From: a virus
Lineage: Duplodnaviria; Heunggongvirae; Uroviricota; Caudoviricetes
IMG/VR virus record: IMGVR_UViG_648276648_000009
Coordinates: 1-50,997 of that record
Direction: 5' to 3' (one strand)
Length of the DNA stretch: 50,997 nucleotides
How positions within the stretch are numbered: the stretch's first letter is position 1; the number at the start of each line of letters is the position of its first letter. Below are positions 4,352-45,003 of the stretch, in pieces. The translations under genes and the position numbers were made by a program. The notes under the pieces are model-generated. The model made no database searches. It was not told the DNA's origin and saw only the letters and a program-made list of their open reading frames with translations.

Positions 4352-4427
4352 GATGGTGTAGCTCAGCGGTTAGAGCGGTTGACTGTTAATCAACGGGTCG
4401 ATGGTTCAAATCCATCCACCATCGCCA
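4352..4427 (+). tRNA. tRNA-Asn (anticodon GUU)
   Basis: 76-nt cloverleaf: acceptor GATGGTG/CACCATC, anticodon loop CTGTTAA, T-loop GGTTCAAATCC, 3' CCA encoded. Confidence 0.9.
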
Positions 4428-4429
4428 AT

Positions 4430-4505
4430 GCCGGTTTAGCTCAGTTGGTAGAGCGCCTGCCTTGTAAGCAGGATGTCAGCGGTTCGAGTCCGTTAATCGG
4501 CACCA
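4430..4505 (+). tRNA. tRNA-Thr (anticodon UGU)
   Basis: 76 nt; close to E. coli tRNA-Thr as recalled; anticodon loop CTTGTAA; T-loop GGTTCGAGTCC; CCA encoded. Confidence 0.9.
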
Positions 4506-6132: not shown

Positions 6133-6208
6133 GGCCCTTTAGCTCAGTGGTTAGAGCTGGCGACTCATAATCGCACGGTCACCGGTTCAAGTCCGGTAGG
6201 GGCCACCA
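6133..6208 (+). tRNA. tRNA with CAU anticodon, most likely tRNA-Ile2 (lysidine-type) rather than Met
   Basis: 76 nt; near-identical to E. coli ileX-type tRNA as recalled; anticodon loop CTCATAA; CCA encoded. Confidence 0.85.
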
Positions 6209-24264: not shown

Positions 24265-25817
24265 TTCTGCACCTCGCAGCCTTCAATTTCAGCCACAATC
24301 GCATCAATATCTTTACGCAACTGGTCGATTTTGCTGACCGTGATTTTCAGCTCTGCATTCAACTCAGCGATATCGATAATTTCGCGAGTATCTTTCGCTT
24401 CAACATAGCTGCTCACCGACAGGTTATAGTCATTAGCAACAACGGTCTCAAACGCGACTGATTTCGCCAGATGAGCAACATCTTCCTTGCTGGCAAATAC
24501 CTGCATAATCTGTTCGATATGGGCATCGGTCAGGATATTGTTGTTGGTCTCTTTTTTGAATAGTTCGCTGGCGTCAATAAACTGAACTTTTGTATCTGTT
24601 TTATGTTTAGACAACACCAGAATGTTTACGGCAATGGTGGTGCCAAAGAACAGGTTCGGTGCCAGTGAAATCACGGTTTCGACATAGTTATTATCAACCA
24701 GATACTGACGGATTTTCTGCTCCGCGCCGCCACGGTAAAAAATACCCGGGAAGCAAACAATCGCAGCACGACCTTTGGCAGAAAGATAGTTCAGCGCATG
24801 TAGTACAAAGGCGAAGTCAGCTTTTGATTTGGGGGCCAGAACGCCAGCCGGGGCAAAACGTTCATCGTTAATCAGCGTCGGGTCATCGCTGCCAATCCAT
24901 TTCACCGAATACGGCGGGTTAGAAACGATGGCATCAAACGGTTTTTCATCTCTGAAGTGTGGTTCAGTCAGCGTATTGCCCAGCTTGATATCAAACTTGT
25001 CGTAGTTGATGTTGTGCAAAAACATGTTCATACGCGCCAGGTTATAGGTCGTATGGTTGATTTCCTGACCAAAAAAACCTTCTTCGATGATATGGTCATC
25101 AAACTGTTTTTTAGCCTGCAACAACAGCGAACCGGAGCCTGCTGCCGGGTCGTAGATTTTGTTAACGTGGGTCTGCCCGTGCATAGCCAGTTGTGCAATC
25201 AGCTTAGAGACGTGCTGCGGTGTAAAGAACTCGCCGCCGGACTTACCGGCATTCGCGGCATAGTTAGAAATCAGGAACTCATAGGCGTCACCGAACAGAT
25301 CAATCTGATGTTCGGTGAAGTCACCAAGTTTTAACCCTTCAACCCCTTTCAGAACCGCAGCCAGGCGGGCATTTTTATCTTTAACGGTGTTACCCAGGCG
25401 GTTACTGGTGGTATCGAAATCAGCAAACAAACCTTTGATGTCTGCTTCTGAAGGGTAGCCGTAAGCAGAACTTTCGATAGCAACGAAGATACTGTTTAAA
25501 TCTGCATTCAGTCTGTCATTGGTATTTGCTTTCGCAGCTACGTTGCAGAAAAGCTGGCTTGGGTAGATGAAGTAGCCTTTGGTTTTGATGGCATCGTCTT
25601 TAATGTCATCAGTAATTACGCTGTCATCCAGTGCTGCATAACAGATGCTGTCATCATCGGCTTCCATATAGCTGGAAAAATTTTCGCTGATAAAACGATA
25701 AAAAAGCGCGCCCAGAACGTACTGCTTAAAATCCCATCCATCGACTGAACCCCTGACATCGTTAGCAATTTGCCAGATCTGGCGATGAAGTTCTGCACGT
25801 TGTTGAATACTTGTCAT
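24261..25817 (-). CDS. hsdM: Type I N6-adenine methyltransferase subunit (HsdM)
   Basis: 518 aa; AdoMet motif [10 protein letters not shown] and catalytic NPPY. Confidence 0.92.
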
Positions 25818-30741: not shown

Positions 30742-31194
30742 ATGTTACTTAACTGGCAGGGACGCCACTTCATGGAAATAAATCACTCACGAATAACATC
30801 GTACGAGATTGCGGATTACATGATCCGCACTAAATCTCTTCTATCAGCGAAAGAACTCGCAGCAATTCTTGAAAAGGAATACCCGCATCTGGATGTCGAT
30901 AAGCGCGATGTTTATCTGCGCTTAAAGGCTATCGCTGTGTCTAAGTATTCGTCTGTTTTGATTGATGACAGTACACGCCCACGTAGATTTCAGATCCACT
31001 CTCTGAATCCTGAATTCTTTCGCCGCAGTCGCGCTCCGCGCCGGTTTGATGAAAAACTCCAGAACGAACTCTATATGACGCAGGACGAAAAGGAACGCCG
31101 GGAGCACCAGCCTTGGGTAATGGCGCGTCAACTTTTCAATAAGGTGGTCCGTCAGCACCGTCATTACGGTAATGCCACATCCGCACGTATCTGA
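30742..31194 (+). CDS. lpa: Late promoter activator (P1 Lpa/gp10-like)
   Basis: 150-aa ORF immediately upstream of pacA, as in P1. Confidence 0.7.
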   Translation: MLLNWQGRHFMEINHSRITSYEIADYMIRTKSLLSAKELAAILEKEYPHLDVDKRDVYLRLKAIAVSKYSSVLIDDSTRPRRFQIHSLNPEFFRRSRAPRRFDEKLQNELYMTQDEKERREHQPWVMARQLFNKVVRQHRHYGNATSARI

Positions 31195-31280
31195 TTGATT
31201 GCTTGCCCGTTCCGGGCCTTTTGACATGTGACTTTCGTTACCCTCGCGTCAAAAAGAGTTTTATACGAAAGGAAGCATAA

Positions 31281-32474
31281 GTGACCTGGGACGATCACAA
31301 GAAGAATTTTGCTCGCCTGGCGCGAGATGGTGGTTACACCATCGCACAATATGCCGCCGAGTTTAATCTCAACCCAAACACCGCACGTCGTTATCTCCGT
31401 GCATTCAAAGAAGACACCGGAACAGCGGACAGCCGTAAGCCAAATAAGCCTGTCAGGAAACCACTAAAAAGCATGATCATTGATCACGCTAATGATCAAC
31501 GTGCAGGTGATCACGTTGTGGCTGAAATGGCTGAAAAACAAAGAGTTAATGCTGTTGTCAGTGCCGCAGTCGAGAACGCTAAGCGCCAAAATAAGCGCAT
31601 AAATGATCGTTCTGATGATCATGACGTGATCACCCGCGCCCACCGTACCTTACGTGATCGCCTGGAACGCGACACCCTGGATGATGATGGTGAACGCTTT
31701 GAATTCGAAGCTGGCGATTACCTGATAGATAACGTTGAAGCGCGGAAGGCCGCGCGCGCTATGTTGCGTCGGTCCGGGGCCGATGTTCTGGAAACCACAC
31801 TTCTGGAAAAGTCTCTTTCTCATCTCCTTATGCTGGAGAACGCCAGGGATACGTGTATTCGCCTGGTGCAGGAAATGCGCGATCAGCAAAAAGACGATGA
31901 TGAAGGTACTCCGCCTGAATACCGTATCGCGAGCATGCTAAACAGCTGTTCCGCGCAGATAAGCAGCCTGATCAACACCATTTACAGCATCCGGAATAAC
32001 TATCGAAAAGAAAGCCGGGAGGCGGAAAAGCACGCTTTGTCTATGGGGCAAGCTGGCATTGTTAAGCTGGCATACGAACGAAAGCGTGAAAATAACTGGT
32101 CAGTGCTGGAAGCAGCTGAATTCATCGAGGCGCATGGCGGGAAAGTGCCGCCCCTGATGCTGGAGCAAATCAAAGCCGATCTGCGTGCTCCTAAGACAAA
32201 TACCGATGATGAGGAAAGGCAAACTGCCGTCGGTGGCCCTTCTCTTGAAGATCTGGACAAAGTTGCGCGAGAACGGGCCGCCAACCGCCGCGCCGATGCT
32301 GCATTGTGGATTGAGCAACGTAGGGAAGAAATCGCCGATATCGTTGATACAGGCGGTTATGGAGATGTTGATACTGAAGGTGTATCAAACGAACCATGGC
32401 TGGAACAAGACCTGGACGAAGACGAGGAGGAAGACGAAGAAGTTACCCGCAAGCTATACGGGGATGATGATTAA
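31281..32474 (+). CDS. pacA: Terminase/pacase small subunit PacA
   Basis: 397 aa, GTG start; contains the pac hexamer cluster; acidic C-terminus. Confidence 0.92.
31474..31632 (+). promoter_or_regulatory. P1 pac site: two clusters of TGATCA/G hexamers (4 left, 3 right) carrying Dam GATC sites, inside pacA
   Basis: Hexamers at 31474, 31481, 31493, 31508 and 31604, 31616, 31627. Confidence 0.85.
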
Positions 32475-33958
32475 TGGCCAGAAGTTGCGTAACGGATCCA
32501 CGTTGGCGCGAGCTGGTGGCGCTATATCGTTATGACTGGATTGCTGCCGCTGATGTTTTGTTCGGCAAAACACCTACCTGGCAGCAGGATCTGATTATTG
32601 AGTCTGTGCAGGAACAGGGTAGCAAGACATCTGTTTCGTCTGGTCACGGTACCGGGAAATCAGACATGACTTCTATCATGATCATGTTGTTCATAATCAT
32701 GTATCCCGGTGCCCGCGCCATTATCGTTGCGAACAAAATTCAGCAGGTAATGACCGGTATATTCAAGTACATCAAGATAAACTGGGCTACTGCCACCAGC
32801 CGTTTTCCATGGCTTGCTGATTATTTTGTTCTGACAGAAACCGCTTTCTATGAGGTTACTGGTAAAGGTGTATGGACTGTAGTACCGAAGGGCTTTCGTC
32901 TGGGAAGTGAAGAAGCTCTCGCCGGTGAACACGCAGATCATCTTCTGTATATTATCGATGAAGCCTCCGGTGTCAGTGATAGAGCTTTCGGTATCATCAC
33001 CGGTGCTCTTACCGGACAGGATAACCGCATCTTATTACTGTCACAGCCTACACGCCCAAGCGGCTATTTCTACGATACTCACCATAAACTGGCCAAGCGT
33101 CCTGGTAACCCTGATGGCGTTTATACGGCGATCACGCTTAACAGTGAGGAATCACCGCTGGTAACGCCAGCATTTATCAAAATGAAGCTGGCGGAGTACG
33201 GCGGGCGTGATAACCCTATGTACATGATTAAGGTACGCGGACTATTCCCTAAATCACAGGATGGCTTCCTTCTTGGACGTGATGAGGTTGAACGTGCGAC
33301 GCGGCGGAAAGTCAAGATTGCCAAAGGATGGGGCTGGCTTGCATGTGTGGACGTTGCTGGTGGTACGGGACGGGATAAGTCCGTTATCAATATCATGATG
33401 GTGTCCGGCCAGAGAAATAAACGCCGTGTAATCAACTATCGAATGCTGGAATACACAGACGTTACAGAAACGCAGCTTGCCGCCAAAATTTTCGCAGAAT
33501 GTAATCCTGAGCGATTCCCAAATATCACCATAGCGATAGACGGCGATGGGCTGGGTAAAGCAACAGCGGATCTGATGTACGAGTATTATGGTATTACCGT
33601 ACAGCGTATACGCTGGGGTAAAAAGATGCATAGCCGTGAAGATAAGAGCCTGTACTTTGATAAACGTGCTTATGCCAATGTTCAAGCCGCAGAGGCCGTA
33701 AAATCTGGTCGTATGAGACTGGATAAGGGTAATGAAACTATTGAGGAAGCGTCGAAAATCCCTGTAGGGATTAACTCCGCAGGTCAATGGAAGGTGATGA
33801 GTAAGGAGGATATGAAGAAAAAACTCAACCTGCACTCACCAGACCATTGGGATACATATTGTTTCGCTATGCTGGCGGATTATGTTCCCCAGGATGAAGT
33901 GCTTAGCGTCGAAGACGAAGCGCAGGTTGATGAAGCTCTGGCATGGCTTAATGAATGA
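32474..33958 (+). CDS. pacB: Terminase large subunit PacB
   Basis: 494 aa; ATPase motif SSGHGTGKS; TAATG coupling to pacA. Confidence 0.92.
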
Positions 33959-33961
33959 ACA

Positions 33962-33978
33962 TTTGCTCTAATGAATTG
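33962..33978 (+). promoter_or_regulatory. C1 operator (TTTGCTCTAATGAATTG) with downstream -10-like TAACTA
   Basis: Core GCTCTAAT conserved; directly after the pacB stop. Confidence 0.5.
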
Positions 33979-34110
33979 TGTTTTTTAACTACCGATGTTA
34001 CATTGAACCTGACCTCTTGCGCCTTGAGGCATTTTCGGTTTATGCTTATCAGGCACCTCATTAAAACGGGTGCCGGGATTGAGACCCCGGATAATGCAAA
34101 AGGCGACACA

Positions 34111-34132
34111 GACGCCAAAAGCGTCTTTTTTT
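34111..34132 (+). terminator. Rho-independent terminator (GACGC-CAAAA-GCGTC then T7)
   Basis: Read directly. Confidence 0.6.
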
Positions 34133-34139
34133 GTGTCAT

Positions 34140-34300
34140 GCCATCGCACAGCCATACGTAGCGTTTAGCTCAGAGATCAATGGTAGTGCTGGCTGGGCTG
34201 CCGAAAGGCAGGCCGGTTCCCTTTTGCGCCGGTAGTCTCAACCCAGTCAGTGCTACCGCCATTGAGATTGAGACCTCACGCGGTAGCTCCTTAAATTAGC
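34140..34300 (+). ncRNA. Structured leader of immI-like module 1; candidate c4-type antisense RNA region
   Basis: Complementary segments CAATGGTAGTGCTGGCTGGG and CCCAGTCAGTGCTACCGCCATTG plus nested hairpins upstream of the icd-like RBS; exact RNA ends not determinable. Confidence 0.35.
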
Positions 34301-34317
34301 AAAAGGAGGCTGCCATT

Positions 34318-34539
34318 GTGGCTACTATCCCTACCCCTGCTCATCCTGAATTTATCTGGCGCTTTTACTCCTGCCAAAAACGTCACTATCACTTCGTTAT
34401 TGCACCGACAGAAGATGAGGCACGTTCTCAGCTTCCTGACGCCCCATGTATTTTCTCTGCCCGTTTTTCCACTGATTCACGCAATTCTCTCAGTTACTGG
34501 TGCCTCCCTGTTAACGCTTCTGCTCAGGAGGGACTATGA
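34318..34539 (+). CDS. icd: Icd-like 73-aa protein, copy 1
   Basis: GTG start after AAAAGGAGG; overlaps the antirepressor start (ATGA); substitutions between the two copies are almost all synonymous in this frame. Confidence 0.65.
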   Translation: MATIPTPAHPEFIWRFYSCQKRHYHFVIAPTEDEARSQLPDAPCIFSARFSTDSRNSLSYWCLPVNASAQEGL

Positions 34540-35648
34540 GAACATCGTTAGTTACCCGTGAAGAGATGATCGAGGCAATTGAACAGCACACTGCCTGTAT
34601 CAGTACCAGGGATATACCTGGCGTTATTGCCAACTACTTCATGATCACCAAACAACTTTACCGGAGAAAGGACAAACACGCAGTTCACCGCATTCTGCTA
34701 ACCGATATCCGTGAATACCTGCTCGAACAGGGTCATCTAAATTACGCAACCGTCGCAGCCGAAGCACGCAAGGAGGCACACAGAATGAAAGCAACTAACG
34801 TTAAATCAGAAAAAATTTATGCACCTTCAGTTCAGGAATCGGAACTGGTGGTTGTTCAGAATCAGCCGGATGAAATTCCCGTTCTGGAATGGCAGGGAGT
34901 ACGTGTCGTGACAACCGAAACTCTTGCTAGAGGGTATGGGGTCGATGAAGCCAATATTCGCAACAATTTGTCTCGCAACCTTGACCGCTTTGAAGAAGGT
35001 AAGCATTACTTTCTTCTAACTGGTTTAAAATTAAGAGAATTTAAGAACAGAGTAACCGGAAGTTACTCTGTTGGTAAGAACGCCAGAAGCCTTACACTCT
35101 GGACAGAGCGCGGCGCTGCACGCATGTCTAAGATCGTGGACACAAATGAAGCATGGGCATTCTTTGAAAAACTGGAAGACAGCTACTTCCGGCAAAAAGA
35201 ACAGCAACCGGTTGCAATCCCCCAAACATTACCAGAAGCCCTACGCCTGGCTGCCGAACTGGCTGAACAAAAGCAGCTTCTGGAACAGAAAGCCCACCAG
35301 CTAAATCAGCAGCTGGTGGCCGCCGCTCCTAAGGTCGATTTTGCCGACCGGGTATCAGTAGCTAAAGGGATCCTGATTGGGAATTTTGCAAAGGTTGTTG
35401 GACTTAAGCAAAATGCGCTGTTTGCCTGGTTACGGGAGAACGGCATCCTGATAGCGTCCGGTGGACGTAAAAATGTGCCGTTCCAGCAGTACATCAACGC
35501 GGGGTATTTCACGGTGAAAGAAGTGGTGCTGGATGATGAAGATGGCTACCAGATACGGTTGACGCCTCAATTAACGGGTAAAGGCCAGCAGTGGTTGACG
35601 CGTAAACTGCTCGATGCTGGCTTGTTAAAACCGGTGGCGGCTGAATAA
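34536..35648 (+). CDS. ant: Phage antirepressor (AntA-like N-terminal domain, ANT/KilAC C-terminal domain), copy 1
   Basis: 370 aa; translationally coupled to the icd-like ORF. Confidence 0.85.
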   Translation: MRTSLVTREEMIEAIEQHTACISTRDIPGVIANYFMITKQLYRRKDKHAVHRILLTDIREYLLEQGHLNYATVAAEARKEAHRMKATNVKSEKIYAPSVQESELVVVQNQPDEIPVLEWQGVRVVTTETLARGYGVDEANIRNNLSRNLDRFEEGKHYFLLTGLKLREFKNRVTGSYSVGKNARSLTLWTERGAARMSKIVDTNEAWAFFEKLEDSYFRQKEQQPVAIPQTLPEALRLAAELAEQKQLLEQKAHQLNQQLVAAAPKVDFADRVSVAKGILIGNFAKVVGLKQNALFAWLRENGILIASGGRKNVPFQQYINAGYFTVKEVVLDDEDGYQIRLTPQLTGKGQQWLTRKLLDAGLLKPVAAE

Positions 35649-35680
35649 TGGAAGAATGCCCGGTTGATGCCGGGCATAAT

Positions 35681-36532
35681 TTATTGCGCGCTTTCGGGGT
35701 TGTCGTTTACTGGCTGCCCCTTCTTGGTTTTACGGCTGCGCGTAACTGATGCGGCTGACTTAACCTTTTTCTCTTCGCGAGTGATGGCAATTTGTTTTTT
35801 TACATTTTCAATATCTGCCAGGCGATATATTTTTGCTTGCGGCCAGCGGTCGCAGATGATCGGTTCTATGGAGTCATAAAGGCTAAATTTTGCTTTTTCG
35901 AATTCACCGTTGATGATAATTCCATCACGGAGAGTTTCATCGCAGATAAACACGCCACACAGTGGCACATGGTAACTAACTGATTTACCATCATTGTAGT
36001 TAGGGCTACTGGAAATGTAGTGGACGCGCAGCATTGTTTCGCTAAAGCCGTGTACGCGCATACGGAATTTTTCATCCTCCGGGTACTGCCTCATTAGCTC
36101 TTTTGTTGCTTCCAGGTTCTCTATGTATTTCGCACTGTGCTCATTGATCCCCGCGCTTTTTTGGATGCGAATGTCCTTATCAATCAGATGAATAATGCGG
36201 CCAGCGGTCATGTTGACGCTGTTCACAGCTTCTGTCTGATAAGTTGTAACCTTGCGCACACCGCGAAGGATGTTAGGCACTGGATATAAAATAGTCTTTG
36301 GGATATTGAGGTCTGGGTACTGTTCCAGTTCCCGCGCCATTAAAGTCCATTTATCAATTTCAGCCTGAATGCTGTCAGTTTCTTTGAACGGTAGAACGAC
36401 AACCGGGCGTACAGGACGACCGTCGCTGGCTGTATCAACGTGTTGGGCGCGTGCAACAGCTTTTTTTAGAAAGAGATCCCTGAAGCTGACGAACTCCTGG
36501 TACAGTTGTTCGCCGTAGACATAATTTATCAT
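35681..36532 (-). CDS. c1: C1 repressor of lysogeny
   Basis: 283 aa starting MINYVYGEQLYQEF, matching P1 C1 as recalled. Confidence 0.95.
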   Translation of the reverse strand: MINYVYGEQLYQEFVSFRDLFLKKAVARAQHVDTASDGRPVRPVVVLPFKETDSIQAEIDKWTLMARELEQYPDLNIPKTILYPVPNILRGVRKVTTYQTEAVNSVNMTAGRIIHLIDKDIRIQKSAGINEHSAKYIENLEATKELMRQYPEDEKFRMRVHGFSETMLRVHYISSSPNYNDGKSVSYHVPLCGVFICDETLRDGIIINGEFEKAKFSLYDSIEPIICDRWPQAKIYRLADIENVKKQIAITREEKKVKSAASVTRSRKTKKGQPVNDNPESAQ

Positions 36533-36626
36533 TGATCCTCCTCCAGAATTGACATGGTCAATAACGCCCGGCTGAGAAAACCGGTCATTACTGACCTATA
36601 TTATAGAGGGATCAAACAAAAATAAT

Positions 36627-36643
36627 AGATTTATTAGTGCATT
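36627..36643 (-). promoter_or_regulatory. C1 operator-like site, reverse orientation (AGATTTATTAGTGCATT), between coi and c1
   Basis: 14/17 match to the reverse consensus. Confidence 0.45.
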
Positions 36644-36852
36644 TATTGTGAGTCTAACTGGTTAGTTGCCATGAGATATTCGATTGTGTCAGTGAGATCA
36701 TCCAGGTCGTCTTGGGTGATGCGGTACTCCTGATTGGATATCTTTGAGTAGTGTTCAGCAATGGCGCGGGCAGCGTCGGTTTCGGCAGGGTCTACAGATA
36801 AAGCGTTAGAGCAATGTCTAACGTCGTCGATGGTTGGTTGAATGAAAGCCAT
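36643..36852 (-). CDS. coi: Coi (C1 inactivator)
   Basis: 69-aa acidic ORF immediately upstream of c1 on the same strand. Confidence 0.8.
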   Translation of the reverse strand: MAFIQPTIDDVRHCSNALSVDPAETDAARAIAEHYSKISNQEYRITQDDLDDLTDTIEYLMATNQLDSQ

Positions 36853-37090
36853 AATTATGCCTCACTGTATTGACAACACAGAGCCTGAAGCTCTGACCTA
36901 CTGTTTCACCCATGATCCATGCTGGGGTAATCTAACAACATTGCGCTGTGTGTAAGATGAGCAATGCATAGCTGTAATGCCGTTGTATAAGGTTTCCCTG
37001 TTTGCTCATTTCCTTCTGAGCCGCTCTACAACGCTGAAGACACATTAAATAGTGAATCCAAAGTCGTATTACGTAACGGCGGCAAAACCA

Positions 37091-37107
37091 TAATTTATTA
37101 GAGCAAT
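37091..37107 (-). promoter_or_regulatory. C1 operator, reverse orientation (TAATTTATTAGAGCAAT)
   Basis: 16/17 match. Confidence 0.65.
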
Positions 37108-37173
37108 TGTCAAACAACTATGAAAAACAATCCAGTTTTTAGCTGGTGGAGTGGGATTTTTCTCTCAAAATTT

Positions 37174-37190
37174 ATTGCTCTAATAATTAT
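37174..37190 (+). promoter_or_regulatory. C1 operator (ATTGCTCTAATAATTAT)
   Basis: 14/17 match, ~45 bp from loxP. Confidence 0.6.
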
Positions 37191-37233
37191 TGATTTTTGT
37201 GCGCAGCTGGACGTAAACTCCTCTTCGGACCTG

Positions 37234-37267
37234 ATAACTTCGTATAGCATACATTATACGAAGTTAT
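37234..37267 (+). other. loxP recombination site (ATAACTTCGTATA-GCATACAT-TATACGAAGTTAT)
   Basis: Exact 34-bp loxP: two 13-bp inverted repeats around an 8-bp spacer. Confidence 0.98.
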
Positions 37268-37338
37268 CTTAAGGGTTATTGAACATGATCAATTTACCTG
37301 TAAATCCATACAGTTCAATACCTTACAGGTCAAATAGT

Positions 37339-37358
37339 GATCACTTGATCATTTGATC
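37339..37358. promoter_or_regulatory. Cluster of three GATC (Dam) sites in TGATCA-like hexamers (GTGATCAC TTGATCAT TTGATCAA) in the cre upstream region
   Basis: Read directly; flanked by inverted repeats. Confidence 0.5.
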
Positions 37359-37455
37359 AAGGTTGCGCTACGTAAAATCTGCGAAATGTTGGCAGTGTTA
37401 GTGCTCCAGATTTCGCGTAGCGCACTTAGCACCACCAATCAATCAGAGGTGAAAA

Positions 37456-37677
37456 ATGGGATATTCAGCTGCTAAAGTGTCCACTCATATTGAGCTTGAG
37501 AAAAACCGTGGTTACTGGCGGGCAAAAGGGTTTGATCGTGATAGTTGTCAACTGTCATTATCGCGCGGTGAAGAGAAAATAGAACGCACGCGCGGTCGCT
37601 GGCGTTTCTATGACGAGAACCATAAACAGGTAAAGGCAGAGCCGATCCTGTACACTTTACTTAAAACCATTATCTGA
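37456..37677 (+). CDS. Hypothetical 73-aa basic protein upstream of cre
   Basis: ORF preceded by GAGGTG SD; ends 8 nt before the cre ATG. Confidence 0.45.
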   Translation: MGYSAAKVSTHIELEKNRGYWRAKGFDRDSCQLSLSRGEEKIERTRGRWRFYDENHKQVKAEPILYTLLKTII

Positions 37678-37684
37678 GTGTTAA

Positions 37685-38716
37685 ATGTCCAATTTACTGA
37701 CCGTACACCAAAATTTGCCTGCATTACCGGTCGATGCAACGAGTGATGAGGTTCGCAAGAACCTGATGGACATGTTCAGGGATCGCCAGGCGTTTTCTGA
37801 GCATACCTGGAAAATGCTTCTGTCCGTTTGCCGGTCGTGGGCGGCATGGTGCAAGTTGAATAACCGGAAGTGGTTTCCCGCAGAACCTGAAGATGTTCGC
37901 GATTATCTTCTATATCTTCAGGCGCGTGGTCTGGCAGTGAAAACTATCCAGCAACATTTGGGCCAGCTAAATATGCTTCATCGTCGGTCCGGTCTGCCAC
38001 GACCAAGTGACAGCAATGCTGTTTCACTGGTCATGCGACGGATCCGAAAAGAAAACGTTGATGCCGGTGAACGTGCAAAACAGGCACTGGCGTTCGAACG
38101 CACTGATTTCGACCAGGTTCGTTCACTCATGGAAAATAGCGATCGCTGCCAGGATATACGTAATCTGGCATTTCTGGGGATTGCTTATAACACCCTGTTA
38201 CGTATAGCCGAAATTTCCAGGATCAGGGTTAAAGATATCTCACGTACTGACGGTGGGAGAATGTTAATCCATATTGGCAGAACGAAAACGCTGGTTAGCA
38301 CCGCTGGTGTAGAGAAGGCACTTAGCCTGGGGGTAACTAAACTGGTTGAGCGATGGATTTCTGTCTCTGGTGTAGCTGATGATCCGAATAACTACCTGTT
38401 TTGCCGCGTCAGAAAAAATGGTGTTGCCGCGCCATCATCCACCAGCCAGCTATCAACTCGCGCCCTGGAAGGGATTTTTGAAGCAACTCACCGATTGATT
38501 TACGGGGCAAAAGATGACTCTGGTCAGCGATACCAGGCCTGGTCTGGACATAGTGCCCGTGTCGGTGCCGCGCGAGATATGGCCCGCGCCGGAGTTTCTA
38601 TACCGGAGATCATGCAAGCTGGTGGCTGGACCAACGTAAATATTGTCATGAACTACATTCGTAACCTGGATAGTGAAACGGGGGCAATGGTGCGCCTGCT
38701 GGAAGATGGCGATTAG
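37685..38716 (+). CDS. cre: Cre site-specific tyrosine recombinase
   Basis: 343 aa, MSNLLTVHQNLPALPVDATSDEVRKNLMDMFRDRQAFSEHTWKMLLSVCRSWAAWCKLNN... Confidence 0.98.
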   Translation: MSNLLTVHQNLPALPVDATSDEVRKNLMDMFRDRQAFSEHTWKMLLSVCRSWAAWCKLNNRKWFPAEPEDVRDYLLYLQARGLAVKTIQQHLGQLNMLHRRSGLPRPSDSNAVSLVMRRIRKENVDAGERAKQALAFERTDFDQVRSLMENSDRCQDIRNLAFLGIAYNTLLRIAEISRIRVKDISRTDGGRMLIHIGRTKTLVSTAGVEKALSLGVTKLVERWISVSGVADDPNNYLFCRVRKNGVAAPSSTSQLSTRALEGIFEATHRLIYGAKDDSGQRYQAWSGHSARVGAARDMARAGVSIPEIMQAGGWTNVNIVMNYIRNLDSETGAMVRLLEDGD

Positions 38717-38733
38717 CCGTTCATTTGCGCTTG

Positions 38734-38750
38734 ATTGCTCTAATTATTTG
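38734..38750 (+). promoter_or_regulatory. C1 operator (ATTGCTCTAATTATTTG)
   Basis: 14/17 match, upstream of the cra-like ORF. Confidence 0.55.
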
Positions 38751-38766
38751 ATATTTATGGTGACAC

Positions 38767-39078
38767 ATGCGGAAGGATTTCAAAATAGACGGAAAATATG
38801 TGGTGCTGTCTGTAAGCTCTCAAATTCAGTCACCATCTGTCATTGTCACCGTAAAGTTGAGCGATAGGATGCCTGATATCGACTCGATATCTGTTGCGTT
38901 CCCCGTTAAAAGCATGCGGAGTGCTGAACATTTTGTGATGAATGCAACGGAGGAGGAAGCGCGGCGCGGGCTTACTAGAGTGATGGGGGAATTTGGCGAA
39001 CTCCTGGGTAAGGTAAACAATGCTCTTTCAATCAGTTCAGCAAGGTCCAAAGCGTTAACAGCTTCCATGATGAAATAA
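38767..39078 (+). CDS. cra: Cre-associated small protein (P1 Cra-like)
   Basis: 103-aa ORF immediately downstream of cre. Confidence 0.6.
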   Translation: MRKDFKIDGKYVVLSVSSQIQSPSVIVTVKLSDRMPDIDSISVAFPVKSMRSAEHFVMNATEEEARRGLTRVMGEFGELLGKVNNALSISSARSKALTASMMK

Positions 39079-39210
39079 AAAAAAGCCTGGCAAGGAGCCA
39101 GGCTGCACAAAAGAGCGGGTTTGTATTCCGCATCCAATCAATCAAGAAGGAGTATAGCACACAGGTACTGAAGTGAAAAAATGTGATTCGCGATAAACAA
39201 AATATCTACC

Positions 39211-39240
39211 ATTGCTCTAATTGATTGCTATAATTTAGCC
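39211..39240 (+). promoter_or_regulatory. C1 operator (ATTGCTCTAATTGATTG) overlapping a second partial copy (ATTGCTATAATTTAGCC) with TATAAT -10 hexamer
   Basis: Read directly upstream of ref. Confidence 0.55.
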
Positions 39241-39294
39241 GCATTTTTTGTCAACTACGAAGACGTTGCCATTACTTCACTCCTTGACATCATT

Positions 39295-39320
39295 GGCGGC
39301 CATTAGGCCGCCTTTTTTTT
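39295..39320 (+). terminator. Hairpin GGCGGCC-ATTA-GGCCGCC followed by T8, 5 bp upstream of the ref ATG (terminator or attenuator-like)
   Basis: Read directly; function uncertain because it abuts a start codon. Confidence 0.4.
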
Positions 39321-39325
39321 GCCAT

Positions 39326-39886
39326 ATGAAAACAATCGAACAAAAACTTGAACAGCGCCGCGAGTGGCAGAAGGCAGCCAGAGAACGAGCGATCGCTCGG
39401 CAACGGGAAAAGTTGGCTGACCCCGCCTGGCGAGAATCGCAATATCAGAAAATGCGGGATTCTATCGACCGCCGTATCGCTAAACAGAAAGAGCGCCCAC
39501 CAGCCAGCAAAACGCGGAAAAGTGCGGTAAAAATAAAATCTCGTGGCTTGAAGGGGCGAACACCGACGGCGGAGGAACGGACCATCGCCAATGCTCTTGG
39601 CACTCTCCCCTGCATTGCCTGCTACATGCATGGAGTAATATCTGAAGAGGTGTCTCTGCACCATATCTCCGGTCGTACCGCGCCGGGTTGTCACAAAAAG
39701 CAATTGCCCCTTTGTAGATGGCACCACCAGCATGCTGCACCGGCTGAAGTAAGAGCAAAATACCCCTGGCTGGTCCCTGTTCATGCCGATGGTGTGGTTG
39801 GAGGCAAGAAAGAATTCACCTTGCTGAACAAGTCAGAGATGGAGTTACTGGCTGACGCCTATGAGATGGCAAACATCATGCACTAA
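39326..39886 (+). CDS. ref: Ref (recombination enhancement function), HNH-type endonuclease
   Basis: 186 aa starting MKTIEQKLEQRREWQKAARERAIARQRE; Cys/His HNH-like cluster. Confidence 0.9.
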   Translation: MKTIEQKLEQRREWQKAARERAIARQREKLADPAWRESQYQKMRDSIDRRIAKQKERPPASKTRKSAVKIKSRGLKGRTPTAEERTIANALGTLPCIACYMHGVISEEVSLHHISGRTAPGCHKKQLPLCRWHHQHAAPAEVRAKYPWLVPVHADGVVGGKKEFTLLNKSEMELLADAYEMANIMH

Positions 39887-40075
39887 TAAATATATTATTT
39901 TTAATGATAAATGATTGACAACTGACAAGTGACTTCAGTCAGAATCATCACATGCCCGGTACGGATGGATCCCTTTTCAAATATTCCATGGACGGCACAG
40001 TCTGAGTACCGGGCGCTACCTTCAGTTGTATTGCTAAGCCGCCGCTGGTGGCTTTTCTTTTTTGTAGGGGGCGCT

Positions 40076-40717
40076 ATGGATAAGAAAATATGCGTTGTTT
40101 CGATGAGCGTCGGCAAACCGGCGTCAATGACTGCTGCATGGATCAATAACGAGCTGATAATGGCTGAGCGGACCAGCTACCCTGAACGCCGCCGCGATAT
40201 GGAACTCCAGCTGCTGCGCGAATTGCGAGAAAAAGAGGATAAGGGTTTTATCGTGCTGGTGGAAGAGGAAAACAGCTTTATTACTGGTCGAGTTGGCCAG
40301 CGTGTAAGGTTGCGCGATCCCTTCATGAACGGCAGGCCGGTACTAATTGAGGCAATGCAGATTTACAAGGAGTTGGAACGCCAGAAAGCGATCAAGTTAC
40401 CGCGCAAAGAATCCGGCAAATACATCCTCCACCAAAGCATCTTCGATTCCGAACATGACAAAAAAGGCGATGAATTTTTCAACATCAACTGGAGCGAAAT
40501 AACGACAGAGCATGTTCTGACGTTACTATGTTGCTTTGCGACGGAATACAACAACGTTGCCAGCGCCGACTACATCAGGGCAATGGATGGAGAAGTTGAG
40601 GCACGCCAGGAACCATCGTTACTAAGCCCTCTGATTAACATAATTCGCGGCACACAGAGACTTGCGGAAAAAAGCGTTCCACATGGAATCTTAACTGGAA
40701 AGGGAAACTATTTTTAA
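40076..40717 (+). CDS. mat: Mat-like protein
   Basis: ORF downstream of ref; internal ATG 40076 preceded by GGGGG SD. Confidence 0.6.
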   Translation: MDKKICVVSMSVGKPASMTAAWINNELIMAERTSYPERRRDMELQLLRELREKEDKGFIVLVEEENSFITGRVGQRVRLRDPFMNGRPVLIEAMQIYKELERQKAIKLPRKESGKYILHQSIFDSEHDKKGDEFFNINWSEITTEHVLTLLCCFATEYNNVASADYIRAMDGEVEARQEPSLLSPLINIIRGTQRLAEKSVPHGILTGKGNYF

Positions 40718-40750
40718 CATCCCCAAATCCTTTTGGGGAACAACTCATTC

Positions 40751-41062
40751 TTACAATAGCGGCCCCATACATTGTCTCCAGGCACTCCCCTCATTACCGT
40801 TATCAAGAAACGTAGAGGTTGCATATGGAATGCCTCTGATTTGTGTTGATATGAATGGACCATCAGACGTCGAAGTTGTACGCAGTTTTGATGTAAGTAC
40901 GTATTTTCCACTGATGCCTTTCTCTGCCAGAGCTTTTGATTTTGTGATAACTAAATCTGCACATTTCTCTGCGGCTACATATTGCGGGTCTTTTTCAGCT
41001 TTTCCGGCACATGCAGTTATCGTTAAAACGATAGCTGCGGCTAACAAATTACCTAGTTTCAT
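40751..41062 (-). CDS. Small lipoprotein (signal peptide with lipobox LTITAC)
   Basis: MKLGNLLAAAIVLTITACAGK... ; sits in the position where P1 carries res-mod. Confidence 0.6.
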   Translation of the reverse strand: MKLGNLLAAAIVLTITACAGKAEKDPQYVAAEKCADLVITKSKALAEKGISGKYVLTSKLRTTSTSDGPFISTQIRGIPYATSTFLDNGNEGSAWRQCMGPLL

Positions 41063-41166
41063 CTGCATACCTTATTAAGTGCATTAAAAACAGTAGGTTG
41101 CCAAGGTTTAAAACAAATTTCAACCCCCCGTGACGCGCAACATGAGCAAAAATAACACACAATCCC

Positions 41167-41199
41167 ATTGCTCTAATAAATTTGATTTATTGGAGCAAA
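41167..41199. promoter_or_regulatory. Inverted pair of C1 operators (exact ATTGCTCTAATAAATTT at 41167-41183, then reverse-oriented ATTTATTGGAGCAAAT)
   Basis: Read directly between the lipoprotein gene and immI-like module 2. Confidence 0.65.
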
Positions 41200-41259
41200 T
41201 AACCTACCATTGCGCACTGCCCTATTGATCTTCCTGTCGTTCAGGCTTATAGTCCCACC

Positions 41260-41495
41260 GTCGTAGCAAATTCTGCGACCGGGTTTGACAGCCTGAATGT
41301 ACATGCGGACAACCGCAGATTTCCGATATTGCGGTATTTTTGTGTCCGTAAACCACGTTACGCCCGAATTATGGTGGGGCGTGATGGGGAGGCTTCGGCC
41401 TGCTGGTTTCATGTACGCCAGTCTGTCAACCCCGTCACGTCCTGCCACCTGTTTGACAGCGGGTAGCAGGTTGTTAAACCTGTACATGAGGCCGT
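41260..41495 (+). ncRNA. Structured leader of immI-like module 2 with a three-element sense/antisense/sense arrangement; candidate c4-type antisense RNA
   Basis: TTGATC-N17-TATAGT promoter at 41226-41254; GTTTGACAGCCTGAATGTACATG (41283-41305) is complementary to CATGTACGCCAGTCTGTCAAC (41406-41430), which can also pair with TTGACAGC...TGTACATGAGG overlapping the icd-like RBS. Confidence 0.4.
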
Positions 41496-41499
41496 AACT

Positions 41500-41721
41500 A
41501 TGGTTAATGCCAATCCTTGCGCACGCCCTGAATTTATCTGGCGCTTTTACTCCTGCCAGAAACGTCACTATCACTTCGTTATTGCACCGACAGAAGATGA
41601 GGCTCGCTCTCAGCTTCCGGATGCTCCCTGCATTTTCTCTGCCCGTTTTTCCACTGATTTGCGCAACTCTCTCAGTTACTGGTGTCTCCCTGTTAACGCT
41701 TCTGCTCAGGAGGGACTATGA
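41500..41721 (+). CDS. icd: Icd-like 73-aa protein, copy 2
   Basis: Identical to copy 1 except the first 9 residues and one S-to-L change; ATGA overlap with the antirepressor. Confidence 0.65.
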   Translation: MVNANPCARPEFIWRFYSCQKRHYHFVIAPTEDEARSQLPDAPCIFSARFSTDLRNSLSYWCLPVNASAQEGL

Positions 41722-42836
41722 GAACGTCATTAGTCACCCGTGAAGAGATGATCGAGGCAATTGAACAGCATACCGCCTGTATCAGTACCAAGGATATACC
41801 GGGCGTTATTGCCAACTACTTCATGATCACCAAACAACTTTACCGGAGAAAGGACAAGAACGCGGTTCACCGTATCCTGTTGTCTGATATCCGCGAATAC
41901 CTGCTCGAACAGGGTCATCTGAATTACGCAACCGTCGCAGCCGAAGCACGCAAGGAGGCACACAGAATGAAAGCAACTAACGTTAAATCAGAAAAAATTT
42001 ATGCACCTTCAGTTCAGGAATCGGAACTGGTGGTTGTTCAGAATCAGCCGGATGAAATTCCCGTTCTGGAATGGCAGGGAGTACGTGTCGTGACAACCGA
42101 AACTCTTGCTAGAGGGTATGGGACAGAAACAATCCGTATTCGCCAAAATCATCATGAGAACAAAGTACGCTTTGTTGAAGGGAAGCACTTTTTCAAAGTT
42201 GAAGGAGAATCATTGCGCGAGTTGAAGCACAGAGTAGCTTTAAACTACTCTGTAAAAATTGCTCGCAATGTTCGCTCACTCACCCTCTGGACAGAACGCG
42301 GCGCAGCCCGCCACGCTAAAATGCTCGAAACCGATCAGGCATGGGCATTCTTTGAAAAACTGGAAGACAGCTACTTCCGACAAAAAGAACAGCAACCGGT
42401 TGCAATCCCCCAGACGCTTCCAGAAGCCCTACGCCTGGCTGCCGAACTGGCTGAACAAAAGCAGCTTCTGGAACAGAAAGCCCACCAGCTAAATCAGCAG
42501 CTGGTGGCCGCCGCTCCTAAAGTCGATTTTGCCGACCGGGTATCAGTAGCTAAAGGGATCCTGATTGGGAATTTTGCAAAGGTTGTTGGACTTAAGCAAA
42601 ACGCGCTGTTTGCCTGGTTACGGGAGAACGGCATCCTGATTGCGTCCGGCGGGCGTAAAAATGTACCGCTCCAGCAATACATCAACGCCGGGTATTTCAC
42701 GGTGAAAGAAGTGGTGCTGGATGATGAAGATGGCTACCAGATACGGTTGACGCCTCAATTAACGGGTAAAGGCCAGCAGTGGTTGACGCGTAAACTGCTC
42801 GATGCTGGCTTGTTAAAACCGGTGGCAGCTGAATAA
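41718..42836 (+). CDS. ant: Phage antirepressor, copy 2 (mosaic: termini near-identical to copy 1, central ~70 aa divergent)
   Basis: 372 aa; direct comparison with 34536-35648. Confidence 0.85.
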   Translation: MRTSLVTREEMIEAIEQHTACISTKDIPGVIANYFMITKQLYRRKDKNAVHRILLSDIREYLLEQGHLNYATVAAEARKEAHRMKATNVKSEKIYAPSVQESELVVVQNQPDEIPVLEWQGVRVVTTETLARGYGTETIRIRQNHHENKVRFVEGKHFFKVEGESLRELKHRVALNYSVKIARNVRSLTLWTERGAARHAKMLETDQAWAFFEKLEDSYFRQKEQQPVAIPQTLPEALRLAAELAEQKQLLEQKAHQLNQQLVAAAPKVDFADRVSVAKGILIGNFAKVVGLKQNALFAWLRENGILIASGGRKNVPLQQYINAGYFTVKEVVLDDEDGYQIRLTPQLTGKGQQWLTRKLLDAGLLKPVAAE

Positions 42837-42967
42837 TGGAAGAATGCCCGGTTGAGATGCCGGGCATGATTAAATGTCTCTTCAGCACATTACCGAAGTT
42901 CAATCTTCAACCAAGAAGTGTACTCGCATACGATTATCGCAATAAAATACTTGAAGTTTTATAAACT

Positions 42968-43441
42968 GTGAGTATCATTGCCCATATGAAAACATCCTAT
43001 TTAACTATATTGGCTTTCCATATTCGCGATTTTCGCGAGAAGTATGGTGTTACTCAATCAGACATTGCATCTGGCCTTGGGATAACAAGTGCCGGTTGGG
43101 GAAAAATTGAAAATGGTAAGTCCTCTCTCTCTGTAGAGAATATGATGAAATTCTGTAAAATTATTAATATTGATGCAACCATACTTCTTGATATTTCCAC
43201 GAAATCGGCAAAAAACTTAATCAAATGTGGATGGAGTGTATCTTATTCTCCTGTTGAGGATGATAATTTAATAGACGGAAAAAATATATTTGCTAAAACA
43301 CATGGAATGAATAACGTCATGAGGAAATTTATAGACGGGAAACTTGGAAGTGTTTTAGACAAAGAATTTGATGACATTATTATGAAATATGCAACATTTT
43401 ATATGGTTGTAGCTAAAAATCTAAGAGATGACTTGATTTAA
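42968..43441 (+). CDS. XRE-family helix-turn-helix regulator with C-terminal extension
   Basis: HTH LTILAFHIRDFREKYGVTQSDIASGLGITSAGWGKIENGKSSLSVENMMKFCKIINI; AT-rich codon usage. Confidence 0.65.
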   Translation: MSIIAHMKTSYLTILAFHIRDFREKYGVTQSDIASGLGITSAGWGKIENGKSSLSVENMMKFCKIINIDATILLDISTKSAKNLIKCGWSVSYSPVEDDNLIDGKNIFAKTHGMNNVMRKFIDGKLGSVLDKEFDDIIMKYATFYMVVAKNLRDDLI

Positions 43442-43456
43442 AAATGGAGTGTACAT

Positions 43457-44209
43457 ATGGCATACAGACAAGACAGCGATCTTGAATTCCTAGCTAAATG
43501 TAGCGACCGTGATCTTGATGATTTAGTTAACCTATTGATTTATGATAACGATGGCAAAAAAAGATGGACTGAAGAGTTATCTAACAATCGACAATATAAG
43601 GAATTTGTACCAAGACATAGCGTATATTGGAGAGAAATTGCTGCTGAAATTCAATGTTATGGTGGAAATACCATAGCAACTCTCTTGCGTGGTGGTAAAG
43701 GGGTCTGCTACAGAGAAATTCTCATTGATGTATGCAATAAGCTAAAGGTTAATTTCAATGCCAAGAGCCGAATAGAGGTTATTGAACAAAATCTTCTATT
43801 AAAAATTCTCAGCGACTCTCTAGATAACATGTCATCCGAAGATATAAAAGTTTTTGCCATGGAACTTGGATTGGATGAAGTTACAAGATTTACTCCTGAG
43901 GCAGTTCTATCTGCCTTCCAATATATTTTCAGGGCCGGCGGTTTCAGATCTTATCAGGTAACTCTTAAATTTGCGAATCTTTTACTAAAAATTTTAATTG
44001 GACGCGGTTTGACACTCGCAGGTAATCAAATACTCGTAAAAGCATTATCTATTTTAACAGGCCCAATTGGTTGGACTATAACAGCCGCATGGACCATTGT
44101 AGATGTGGGAGGAACTGCTTATCGAGTAACAATTCCTGCTGTTATTCAAGTTGCTGTACTAAGGGCGAAAGTCAATAATAATATTAAAGACAGCGATATT
44201 ACCTTGTGA
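43457..44209 (+). CDS. YaaW/DUF3944-like protein with C-terminal glycine-rich hydrophobic segment
   Basis: 250 aa; YDNDGK...CYGGNTIATLLRGG...YREILIDVCNKL and C-terminal VDVGGTAYRVTIPAVIQVAVL resemble YaaW (UPF0174) as recalled; GGAGTG SD. Confidence 0.6.
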   Translation: MAYRQDSDLEFLAKCSDRDLDDLVNLLIYDNDGKKRWTEELSNNRQYKEFVPRHSVYWREIAAEIQCYGGNTIATLLRGGKGVCYREILIDVCNKLKVNFNAKSRIEVIEQNLLLKILSDSLDNMSSEDIKVFAMELGLDEVTRFTPEAVLSAFQYIFRAGGFRSYQVTLKFANLLLKILIGRGLTLAGNQILVKALSILTGPIGWTITAAWTIVDVGGTAYRVTIPAVIQVAVLRAKVNNNIKDSDITL

Positions 44210-44284
44210 TATTATAACTCCATCCATCAAGGAAGAGGTGCTAATCCTCTTCCTGTAATTCTATGATTCCTAAATGTTAATGAG

Positions 44285-44533
44285 TCAATCAGCATTCAGG
44301 AGCAATGCATTATCTATGATGATTTGCTCCCATTCTTCGAATGCCCGATCGCGGACACCCTGGGGAACACTGTTAGTTTTGAAATCGACGACCGTACGCC
44401 ATTTCCCGTCCGGACGGTACATGCGCAGAGCTTTACTTCCCCCTTCCCTGCGCACTTCAACGTTATGCTTATCAGCAAACTCTTGTAATGCTCGTAGCGT
44501 CCCATGCTTTACTGTGTAGTATCGCTTTTTCAA
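44285..44533 (-). CDS. lxc: Small protein, 82 aa, Lxc/Bof-like by size and position
   Basis: ORF downstream of the DarB-like gene on the same strand; assignment by synteny and size only. Confidence 0.5.
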   Translation of the reverse strand: MKKRYYTVKHGTLRALQEFADKHNVEVRREGGSKALRMYRPDGKWRTVVDFKTNSVPQGVRDRAFEEWEQIIIDNALLLNAD

Positions 44534-44970
44534 GTTTTCTCTCCAGCCTGTGCCAAGGCTTCAACTTCCAAATCGTAAGACTCAAACTCATAGTCCTGGT
44601 CGTCAACTTCTTCAGGCACTGGCAGTAAATGCCAGGCTGAGTATATCTGACCATTATCAAAACGCTCCTGGCTGTAGAGCGTCGCGGCTATGAGTGTTAG
44701 CGCCGGGCGGTCATAACGGTAAATTTTGCGAACGTCACGGTCAACGAGACGACCGAAATTACCATAACCGCGCTCCAGTAATAATTTTTTAATTTCCGGC
44801 CAGTATGGACCATAGCTGCGGTACAGGCGGGGATTTTTCAGTAATCGCCCGCGTAGCCCTGACAGGAAGAAATCAACGTATTCGTCTTCTGTCTTTCCTA
44901 ACAACGCTGTACGGAGTACCGCCTCAAGATATGTTTTATTCGGTTTTATTGTATCAGATAGTGTGGCCAT
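44530..44970 (-). CDS. Hypothetical protein, 146 aa (Ulx-like by position)
   Basis: ORF between the DarB-like and Lxc-like genes; 4-nt overlap with the downstream gene. Confidence 0.5.
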   Translation of the reverse strand: MATLSDTIKPNKTYLEAVLRTALLGKTEDEYVDFFLSGLRGRLLKNPRLYRSYGPYWPEIKKLLLERGYGNFGRLVDRDVRKIYRYDRPALTLIAATLYSQERFDNGQIYSAWHLLPVPEEVDDQDYEFESYDLEVEALAQAGEKT

Positions 44971-45003
44971 ATTATGCGACGCCCGGCGAACCGGGCGCTC
45001 CTG

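Follow-up and report, generated by a model that had tools for sequence, protein, structure and literature searches.

Heteroimmunity between the bacteriophages P1 and P7 is the textbook case of phage immunity defined by an antisense RNA and, to our knowledge, only two such specificities have been studied so far. In P1, whose GenBank record annotates the elements concerned, the repressor C1 controls the operator-proximal promoter of the immI region and a second, constitutive promoter (P1c4) supplies the C4 RNA in the lysogen. RNase P generates the 5′ end of C4, which pairs with the sites a2 and b2 and blocks the translation of icd; the expression of ant depends on icd translation, and Ant1 and Ant2 inactivate C1. 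Work of the Schuster laboratory is said to be the basis of this mechanism. Here, we analysed a locus of the same kind, named module 2 (positions 41167–42836), together with a companion cassette, module 1 (33962–35648). Both are found in the IMG/VR virus record IMGVR_UViG_648276648_000009 (Duplodnaviria; Heunggongvirae; Uroviricota; Caudoviricetes), whose positions 1 to 50,997 are hereafter referred to as the window.

The immI region of P1 (NC_005856, 48140–49731) comprises Oc4/Op51, P1c4/P2c4, a1b1, c4, icd and ant1/ant2. Module 2 presents the same order of parts, the same a-site and the same C1 operator, and the N-terminal and KilAC regions of Ant are also common to both. However, they differ in the b-site, in their location (sim/kilA-repL in P1 and the mat/darB-like site in module 2), in the unrelated stretch that separates the operator from the second promoter, and in the middle of Ant, where module 2 has an ORF6N domain that P1 Ant1 lacks. 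The immI region of P7 (AF503408, 50853–52448), the classical heteroimmune partner of P1, has the architecture and the leader backbone found in module 2 and illustrates how paired changes of a′/b′ and a2/b2 define immunity specificity, although it differs from module 2 at both sites. The leader of module 1 belongs to the family of the IsrK-orf45-anrP locus of the Gifsy-1 prophage (PMC4825925; Rfam isrK RF01394 plus C4), in which a short terminated small RNA (sRNA) bearing a1/b1-like sequences, a C4-like structure, a small open reading frame (ORF) and a coupled antirepressor follow each other. In Gifsy-1 the short terminated IsrK RNA acts in trans to activate the translation of both the small ORF and the antirepressor coupled to it, and the paper that describes it neither mentions phage P1 nor frames the locus as a C4 system (PMC4825925). 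Module 2 differs from this locus in having c4-a1b1 and not IsrK, and Gifsy-1 itself, a lambdoid prophage, has another repressor and an AntQ pathway downstream.

Additional icd-ant copies have been reported at the gene level. In pSvP1, res-mod is replaced by icd-ant1/2 homologues and a regulator, and in both pTZ20_1P and RCS47 the interval between pacB and c1 holds two short ORFs and an ant gene (Venturini et al., 2019; PMC6906374). In addition, a second c4-icd region was noted in the D6-like plasmid pYU39_89 (PMC6799933). The extra icd-ant genes of pSvP1, pTZ20_1P and RCS47 correspond to the insertions described here, at both sites, the lipoprotein-leader junction of pSvP1 (NZ_MN510446) giving a 92.8% match. 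All these reports, that of the D6-like plasmid included, list genes only, unlike the RNA-level analysis given below, and a 2025 review of phage sRNAs has C4 only for P1 and P7 (PMC12197685). Our literature search, covering few subscription journals, found no publication on further C4 specificities, target sites or co-residence. The genes of module 2 were already on record, and it is the RNA-level picture (a two-site code, covariation in three places and orthogonal stacking) that appears to be new.

Organization and specificity code of module 2

Module 2 is very probably an intact and self-contained accessory immI cassette of the P1/P7 type, endowed with its own specificity and located in the res/mod slot. 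Sequence comparison confirmed its predicted parts, which are an operator, two promoters, c4-a1b1, C4, icd and ant1/ant2 (Table 1). All its ORFs are intact; an in-frame ant2 start (ATG at 41967, with the Shine-Dalgarno (SD) sequence AAGGAGG at 41952–41958) was recognized by reading the sequence, and Ant shares 56% identity with P1 Ant1, from which it differs by a replaced middle domain. The leader is about 87% identical to that of P1 and about 85% to that of P7, without register shifts with respect to the annotated P1 sites. In the three-way alignment of module 2, P1 and P7 (A1; 91% mean column identity) the differences are concentrated at the annotated a and b sites. The sense/antisense/sense triplet that the original prediction had proposed for this leader was found again as a1b1, a′b′ and a2b2, in exact register with P1. 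The promoter equivalent to P2c4/P51a was placed only from the position of the P1 annotation and alignment A1. The terminator-like hairpin that closes the a1b1 element parallels the terminator of module 1 IsrK; owing to a loop of more than 8 nt, it escaped the terminator scan. The mature C4 is predicted to have 77 nt (41373–41449, by its register with P1) and to fold into a stem around two hairpins; in this fold b′ occupies a loop and a′ is left unpaired.

Compared with the c4 regions of P1 and P7, module 2 has the a-site of P1 (a1 and a2 UUGACAG, a′ CUGUCAA; UUAGCAG in P7) and a b-site (b1 and b2 GUACAUG, b′ CAUGUAC) that matches neither that of P1 (GUUAGUG) nor that of P7 (GAUUGUG). It departs from them at three and four of the seven positions, respectively, and b1, b′ and b2 all show the change. 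Neither of its two sites resembles those of module 1, whose code is UUGAGAC for a and GCAAAAGG for b, the latter being part of the icd SD. Folding and complementarity analysis of both leaders showed that the loop sequences of each C4 have complementary sites on both sides of it within its own leader. With duplex energies restricted to the exposed C4 loops, b′ of module 2 gave −15.3 kcal/mol on its own target and the cognate duplex of module 1 about −11 kcal/mol, versus −4.9 to −9.4 kcal/mol for the non-cognate b′ duplexes involving module 2 (with module 1, P1 and P7). By these comparisons, the module 2 code is orthogonal to that of module 1, to that of P7 at both sites and to that of P1 at the b-site. 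Whole-sequence RNAduplex calculations of C4 against the targets were also carried out and discarded, as they yielded −36 to −50 kcal/mol for all pairs and were uninformative because they ignore C4's own fold.

The identity of a1, a′ and a2 with those of P1, and the equal a′ duplex energies of module 2 and P1, are what would be expected if module 2 were a functionally redundant duplicate, cross-repressed by any C4 of the P1 a-type and devoid of independent specificity. Nevertheless, this seems quite improbable. The three differences from P1 in the b-site occur in concert at b1, b′ and b2, and module 1, in the same window, shares neither site with module 2. Furthermore, single contigs hold cassettes differing at one site (aP1/bN, aP1/bP1, aP1/b6 and aP7/bN, where bN is the b-type of module 2, and aP1, aP7, bP1 and bP7 are the P1 and P7 types), which fits a one-site difference being sufficient.

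Comparison of the two modules

According to the original prediction, modules 1 and 2 share nearly identical downstream parts behind unrelated leaders, and this was borne out. The icd-like ORFs have in common only 1 of their first 9 residues and 63 of the remaining 64, and the Ant proteins are identical at 334 of 373 positions, with the divergence confined to residues ~136–206, corresponding to the ORF6N domain. At DNA level, blastn matched 41527–42871 with 34345–35681 at 89.7% identity and gave no alignment upstream of 41527. Identity per 100 nt was 89–100% but fell to 59–66% at 42127–42313. Two 100-nt blocks of ant, 41927–42026 and 42713–42812, are 100% identical, which suggests a recent exchange between the two copies or a common pool. 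Identical blocks combined with a divergent ORF6N-coding middle are suggestive of gene conversion among cassettes residing together, the difference in the central domain being maintained.

As had also been claimed, both modules stand behind C1 operators, perfect in module 2 and with three mismatches in module 1. Both leaders encode a C4 RNA above the Rfam gathering score, with its own complementary sites, and the presence in one genome of two immI-like units with distinct antisense specificities holds in silico. The C4 regions of the two modules are identical at 57 of 95 aligned positions. The parallel drawn with P1 and P7 was right with regard to distinct specificities and underestimated the distance: since module 2 has a P1/P7-type leader and module 1 one of the IsrK plus C4 family, the modules differ far more from each other than P1 does from P7. 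Similarly, the two leaders are indeed different, but it is module 2 that has the canonical P1/P7 type (~87% identity to P1) and module 1 that is divergent. Within the window isrK was found only in module 1, module 2 carrying c4-a1b1, and as far as their sequences tell, the C4 fold is all that the two leader families share. The IsrK element of module 1 contains a1- and b1-like sites for its C4, and by this likeness the IsrK sRNA of Salmonella Gifsy-1 appears to correspond to the a1b1 element of a C4 system.

Natural variation and covariation of the leaders

Scans of IMG/VR with conserved C4 cores gave at least 209 loci. The pattern used for the first collection required a given stem base behind the b′ loop, and three of the b-alleles came only from the scan with the conserved 5′ half of C4; the allele counts are those of a sample and are given as minimum values. 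P1-type leaders have at least two a-alleles (UGACA and UAGCA) and at least six b-alleles (GAUUGUG, GUUAGUG, GUACAUG, ACUUACG, ACGAAUG and ACUUGUG), and at least 11 of the 12 a and b combinations were seen, so that at least 11 classes are observed in this leader type. IsrK-type modules have at least two a- and three b-alleles, in at least five observed classes, and in 72 of 74 homologous modules the a and b sites have complementary partners on the upstream side, inside IsrK, as well as on the downstream side. Among the matches listed, every leader class is internally consistent and the a and b alleles are found in nearly all combinations. Such near-complete combinations are not producible by simple single crossovers because of the order of the sites, a1-b1...b′-a′...a2-b2.

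Covariation was studied in an alignment of 52 distinct P1-type leaders (A2; 93% mean column identity), where the diversity per column was 0.272 at the 44 a/b columns versus 0.040 elsewhere. The helix between a′b′ and a2b2 (15 pairs, 780 cells) consisted entirely of standard (Watson-Crick) pairs, versus 28–48% in controls with the partner columns slid by 1–3 positions; eight pairs were changed on both sides, with 168 double-changed cells and no one-sided change. The helix between a1b1 and a′b′ (14 pairs, 728 cells) was likewise 100% paired, with 26–39% in the slid controls, and showed eight covarying pairs, 168 double-changed cells and no one-sided changes, the leaders of A2 being related by descent and the counts for both helices not representing independent events. 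The strict covariation of a1b1 with a′b′ fits an IsrK-like role of the P1-type a1b1, which is described as putative in the P1 record.

Two loci of the collection deviate from these patterns. In L188 (IMG/VR 2565956613_000015) b1 and b′ are of the ACGAAUG class and b2 of the P1 class, and the matching C4 is found in L053, on contig 000004 of the same isolate. As the two contigs break off at an identical base of the repeated leader, this could be an assembly chimera, and the locus was not used as evidence. Locus L074 (IMG/VR 2675903633_000003) has a single C4 with the b′ loop UCUUGAA and flanks unlike the P1-type a1b1 or a2b2 patterns, and it may represent a further leader family.

Stacking of cassettes in P1-like plasmids

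The occurrence of two units in one genome, as had been pointed out for the window, is real but not unique, since the arrangement is common and had been noted earlier at the gene level (PMC6906374). In IMG/VR, and always among the matches listed, 52 of 147 genome or contig bins carry two or more C4 cassettes; four bins hold three cassettes and three hold four. Thus, the 97-kb contig 2703718869_000013 (loci L017, L071, L087 and L192) has aP1/bN, aP1/bP1, aP1/b6 and aP7/bN together. Single P1-like contigs of ~97 kb with four C4 cassettes, all of different a/b combinations, also include 2713896909_000009 (L065, L088 and L197 listed). Some co-resident P1-type pairs differ at only one site and, among the matches listed, none of the 29 co-resident P1-type pairs shares both sites, versus about 3.9 expected from allele frequencies (P(0) ~0.016), in a calculation that ignores shared ancestry and the association between locus and allele.

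The conserved 5′ half of C4 occurs 671 times in 570 PLSDB records. The bN type is present in 60 copies in 57 records, three of which have both a-versions and none a duplicate of the same version, and the bP1 type in 120 copies in 120 records, without any same-allele duplicate. For bP7 there are 255 copies in 252 records and no record with both a-versions, and therefore three records have a duplicate of the same class. Among INPHARED phages, none carries the exact C4 core of module 2, and only vB_EcoM-Ro157c2YLVW has its aP7/bN version.

An apparent IsrK pair of the same specificity on contig 3300045988_157941 was rejected: the two loci, 50,185 bp apart, have identical local offsets and probably correspond to the terminal overlap of a circular contig.

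Genome context and insertion sites

The window is a P1-like (Punavirus) plasmid prophage with pacA/pacB, cre (37685–38716) and phd/doc-type genes, and it contains 14 C1-operator-like sites (with up to three mismatches) versus 0.22 expected by chance. The best identity found in PLSDB and complete Escherichia coli genomes was 97.8–97.9%, and the closest record is the E. coli plasmid pEC21Z048-103K (IncY), with 97.8% identity over 31000–45000. Besides both modules, this plasmid has, at the canonical sim/kilA-repL site, another cassette with the exact P7 sites, the third in all, and the translation of its cassette ORFs, ant included, is intact. Module 2 is placed between mat and a darB-like gene, in the slot of P1 res/mod, where it is preceded by mat and a lipoprotein-like ORF and followed by HTH and DUF3944 genes; module 1 is between pacB and c1. 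Neither of them is at the sim/kilA-repL position canonical for immI, a feature that is positional and not mechanistic. The pacB-side junction of module 1 was found in 169 PLSDB records and the exact lipoprotein-leader junction of module 2 in 16.

This small number of records, the location in the hypervariable region RD-1 (PMC6906374) and the two 100%-identical blocks common with module 1, suggestive of recent recombination, could indicate that module 2 is a passenger or a decaying relic, recombined into the res/mod slot along with the HTH and DUF3944 genes and without selection for a function of its own. We regard this as very improbable, because neither module 2 nor its counterpart in the closest plasmid has a broken ORF, the operator matches the consensus perfectly, and the three a/b sites are matched here and in 52 of 52 distinct A2 leaders, while decay would give one-sided changes.

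Table 1. Coordinates of the features of modules 1 and 2 and of the c1 gene in the window.
Feature	Positions	Strand	Remarks
Module 2
C1 operator, P1 Oc4/Op51 equivalent	41167–41183	+	Perfect 17-bp consensus ATTGCTCTAATAAATTT; aligns with annotated P1 and P7 operators
Putative C1-controlled promoter, P2c4/P51a equivalent	41181–41210	+	TTTGAT-18-TACCAT; −35 overlaps operator
Promoter, P1c4/P51b equivalent	41225–41253	+	TTGATC-17-TATAGT; promoter scan; aligns with annotated P1 P1c4
c4-a1b1 element	41247–41299	+	Rfam RF03163, 57.9 bits vs gathering 46.7
a1	41285–41291	+	TTGACAG; exact register with annotated P1 sites
b1	41299–41305	+	GTACATG; starts at last base of RF03163 match, extends 6 nt beyond
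Terminator-like hairpin	41313–41344	+	CCGCA...TGCGG, then TATTTTTGTG; sequence reading; paired in minimum free energy fold
C4 antisense RNA	41367–41452	+	Rfam RF01695, 70.7 bits vs gathering 45; full length 1–87
b′ loop	41409–41416	+	UCAUGUAC; register with P1
a′	41423–41429	+	CUGUCAA; register with P1
C4 target region	41453–41489	+	Complementary to a′ and b′
a2	41453–41459	+	TTGACAG; register with P1
b2	41482–41489	+	GTACATGA; overlaps icd SD GAGG 41488–41491
icd homologue	41500–41721	+	73 aa; 81% identity to P1 Icd; stop overlaps ant start (ATGA, 41718–41721)
ant1	41718–42836	+	372 aa; Pfam ORF6N residues 116–202, ANT/KilAC 260–361
Hairpin after ant	42844–42867	+	ATGCCCGG...CCGGGCAT; 3′ end of block common with module 1; homology stops at 42871 (blastn)
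Module 1
Companion cassette	33962–35648	+
Operator-like site	33962–33978		3 mismatches to ATTGCTCTAATAAATTT
IsrK element	34053–34131	+	Rfam isrK, 59 bits; strong terminator at end
a1	34079–34085		Inside IsrK
b1	34096–34103		Inside IsrK
C4	34176–34263	+	Rfam C4, 75 bits vs gathering 45; 45 nt past IsrK
b′	34220–34227
a′	34235–34241
a2	34268–34274
b2/SD	34299–34309
icd	34318–34539	+	73 aa; GTG start
ant	34536–35648	+	370 aa
Other
c1 repressor gene	35681–36532	−

Directly after module 2 there is a gene for an HTH_3 regulator (157 aa) and a DUF3944 gene (250 aa), together at 42968–44209. Both accompany module 2 in the closest plasmids, and a transcriptional regulator is likewise listed for RD-1 of pSvP1. 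On the upstream side, module 2 adjoins a 105-aa ORF with a lipoprotein-like signal (LTITAC; 40751–41068, minus strand) that is oriented away from it; the outer-membrane lipoprotein gene upf50.5 of P7 has a similar position beside the canonical c4. Other elements of the window are a complete type I restriction-modification system (19758–25817, minus strand; hsdR 1058 aa, hsdS 422 aa and hsdM 518 aa), which occupies a region holding other genes in P1, and three tRNA genes at 4352–4502 and 6133–6205 (Rfam tRNA, 65–75 bits), P1-like phages also having such a tRNA region. Finally, the Rfam IS1222 ribosomal frameshift element was identified at 1–60 on the minus strand, truncated by the window edge, and therefore an IS3-family element lies at the window start.

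Proposed mechanism and biological role

By homology with P1, C1 would bind the perfect operator of module 2 and shut the promoter that overlaps it, and the second promoter (TTGATC-17-TATAGT) would keep leader transcription going and supply C4 in the lysogen. The leader would be processed to a C4 RNA of ~77 nt, whose b′ loop and a′ segment would pair with b2 and a2 on the same type of transcript and block the ribosome-binding site of icd. The translation of ant would be coupled to that of icd by the ATGA overlap and would depend on it. As no Ant1/Ant2 would be made, C1 would stay active. The a1b1 element, which ends in the terminator-like hairpin and has the same code, would most likely act as a competitor or decoy of C4, for which the IsrK RNA of Gifsy-1 provides an experimental precedent.

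With regard to its role, an additional cassette may provide one more C4 'key', able to silence incoming phages of its class, and one more Ant 'weapon', which would be silenced by a resident prophage only if this has the matching C4. Such gains in keys and weapons would be the reason for lineages to stack orthogonal cassettes. It might also be that the C4 RNA alone is selected, as a determinant of superinfection immunity in trans, with icd-ant kept only as the source leader and cis target of C4. C4 acts in trans on incoming phages in P1 and P7 (review, PMC12197685), and stacked C4 classes would broaden immunity. Nevertheless, selection on C4 alone is most improbable, since Ant has its full length and a conserved KilAC domain, and the internal start of ant2 and the coupling of translation are also present; moreover, its central ORF6N domain shows diversification, and not degradation, when co-resident copies are compared.

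Several points weigh against the view of module 2 as a functional cassette with a specificity of its own. First of all, everything functional about it is deduced by homology; it is from this that we infer RNA processing, repression, the binding of Ant to C1 and the ecological role. Secondly, the operator-adjacent promoter diverges from the P1 sequence and was not called by the consensus promoter scan. In addition, the a-site is common to module 2 and the P1-type C4 RNAs, so the barrier to cross-repression would have to come from the b-site difference alone. The co-residence statistic leaves aside the two factors indicated above and, in the first scan, the canonical site carried the b of P1 or P7 and the mat-side site mostly bN, which is a confounding by locus. 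Finally, the three bP7 duplicates with the same a-allele in PLSDB, the only candidates for co-residence of one specificity that were seen, may be multimers or real duplicates.

More broadly, P1-like phage-plasmids could use a combinatorial two-site (a × b) RNA barcode, in which mutually orthogonal cassettes are stacked up to four, a difference at a single site is sufficient, a1b1 is a functional partner of C4, and module 2 is one allele in an arms race of RNA immunity and anti-immunity. We propose this barcode tentatively, its chances being a little short of even. Under it, if a difference at one site is sufficient, both contacts would be required for repression, and a1b1, being under the same specificity constraint as a real target, would be a functional partner of C4, as a decoy or anti-antisense.

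The two independently varying contacts would give many more immunity classes than the two of P1 and P7, several of them co-carried by real plasmids, and their alleles constitute a natural mutant matrix for asking whether both contacts are needed. The comparative evidence is strong for the upstream a1b1 being a genuine partner of C4. In addition, orthogonal RNA repressor/target pairs can be taken directly from the collection, which also provides a concrete hypothesis for the mutual exclusion and invasion of P1-like plasmids, a group of importance for the carriage of resistance genes.

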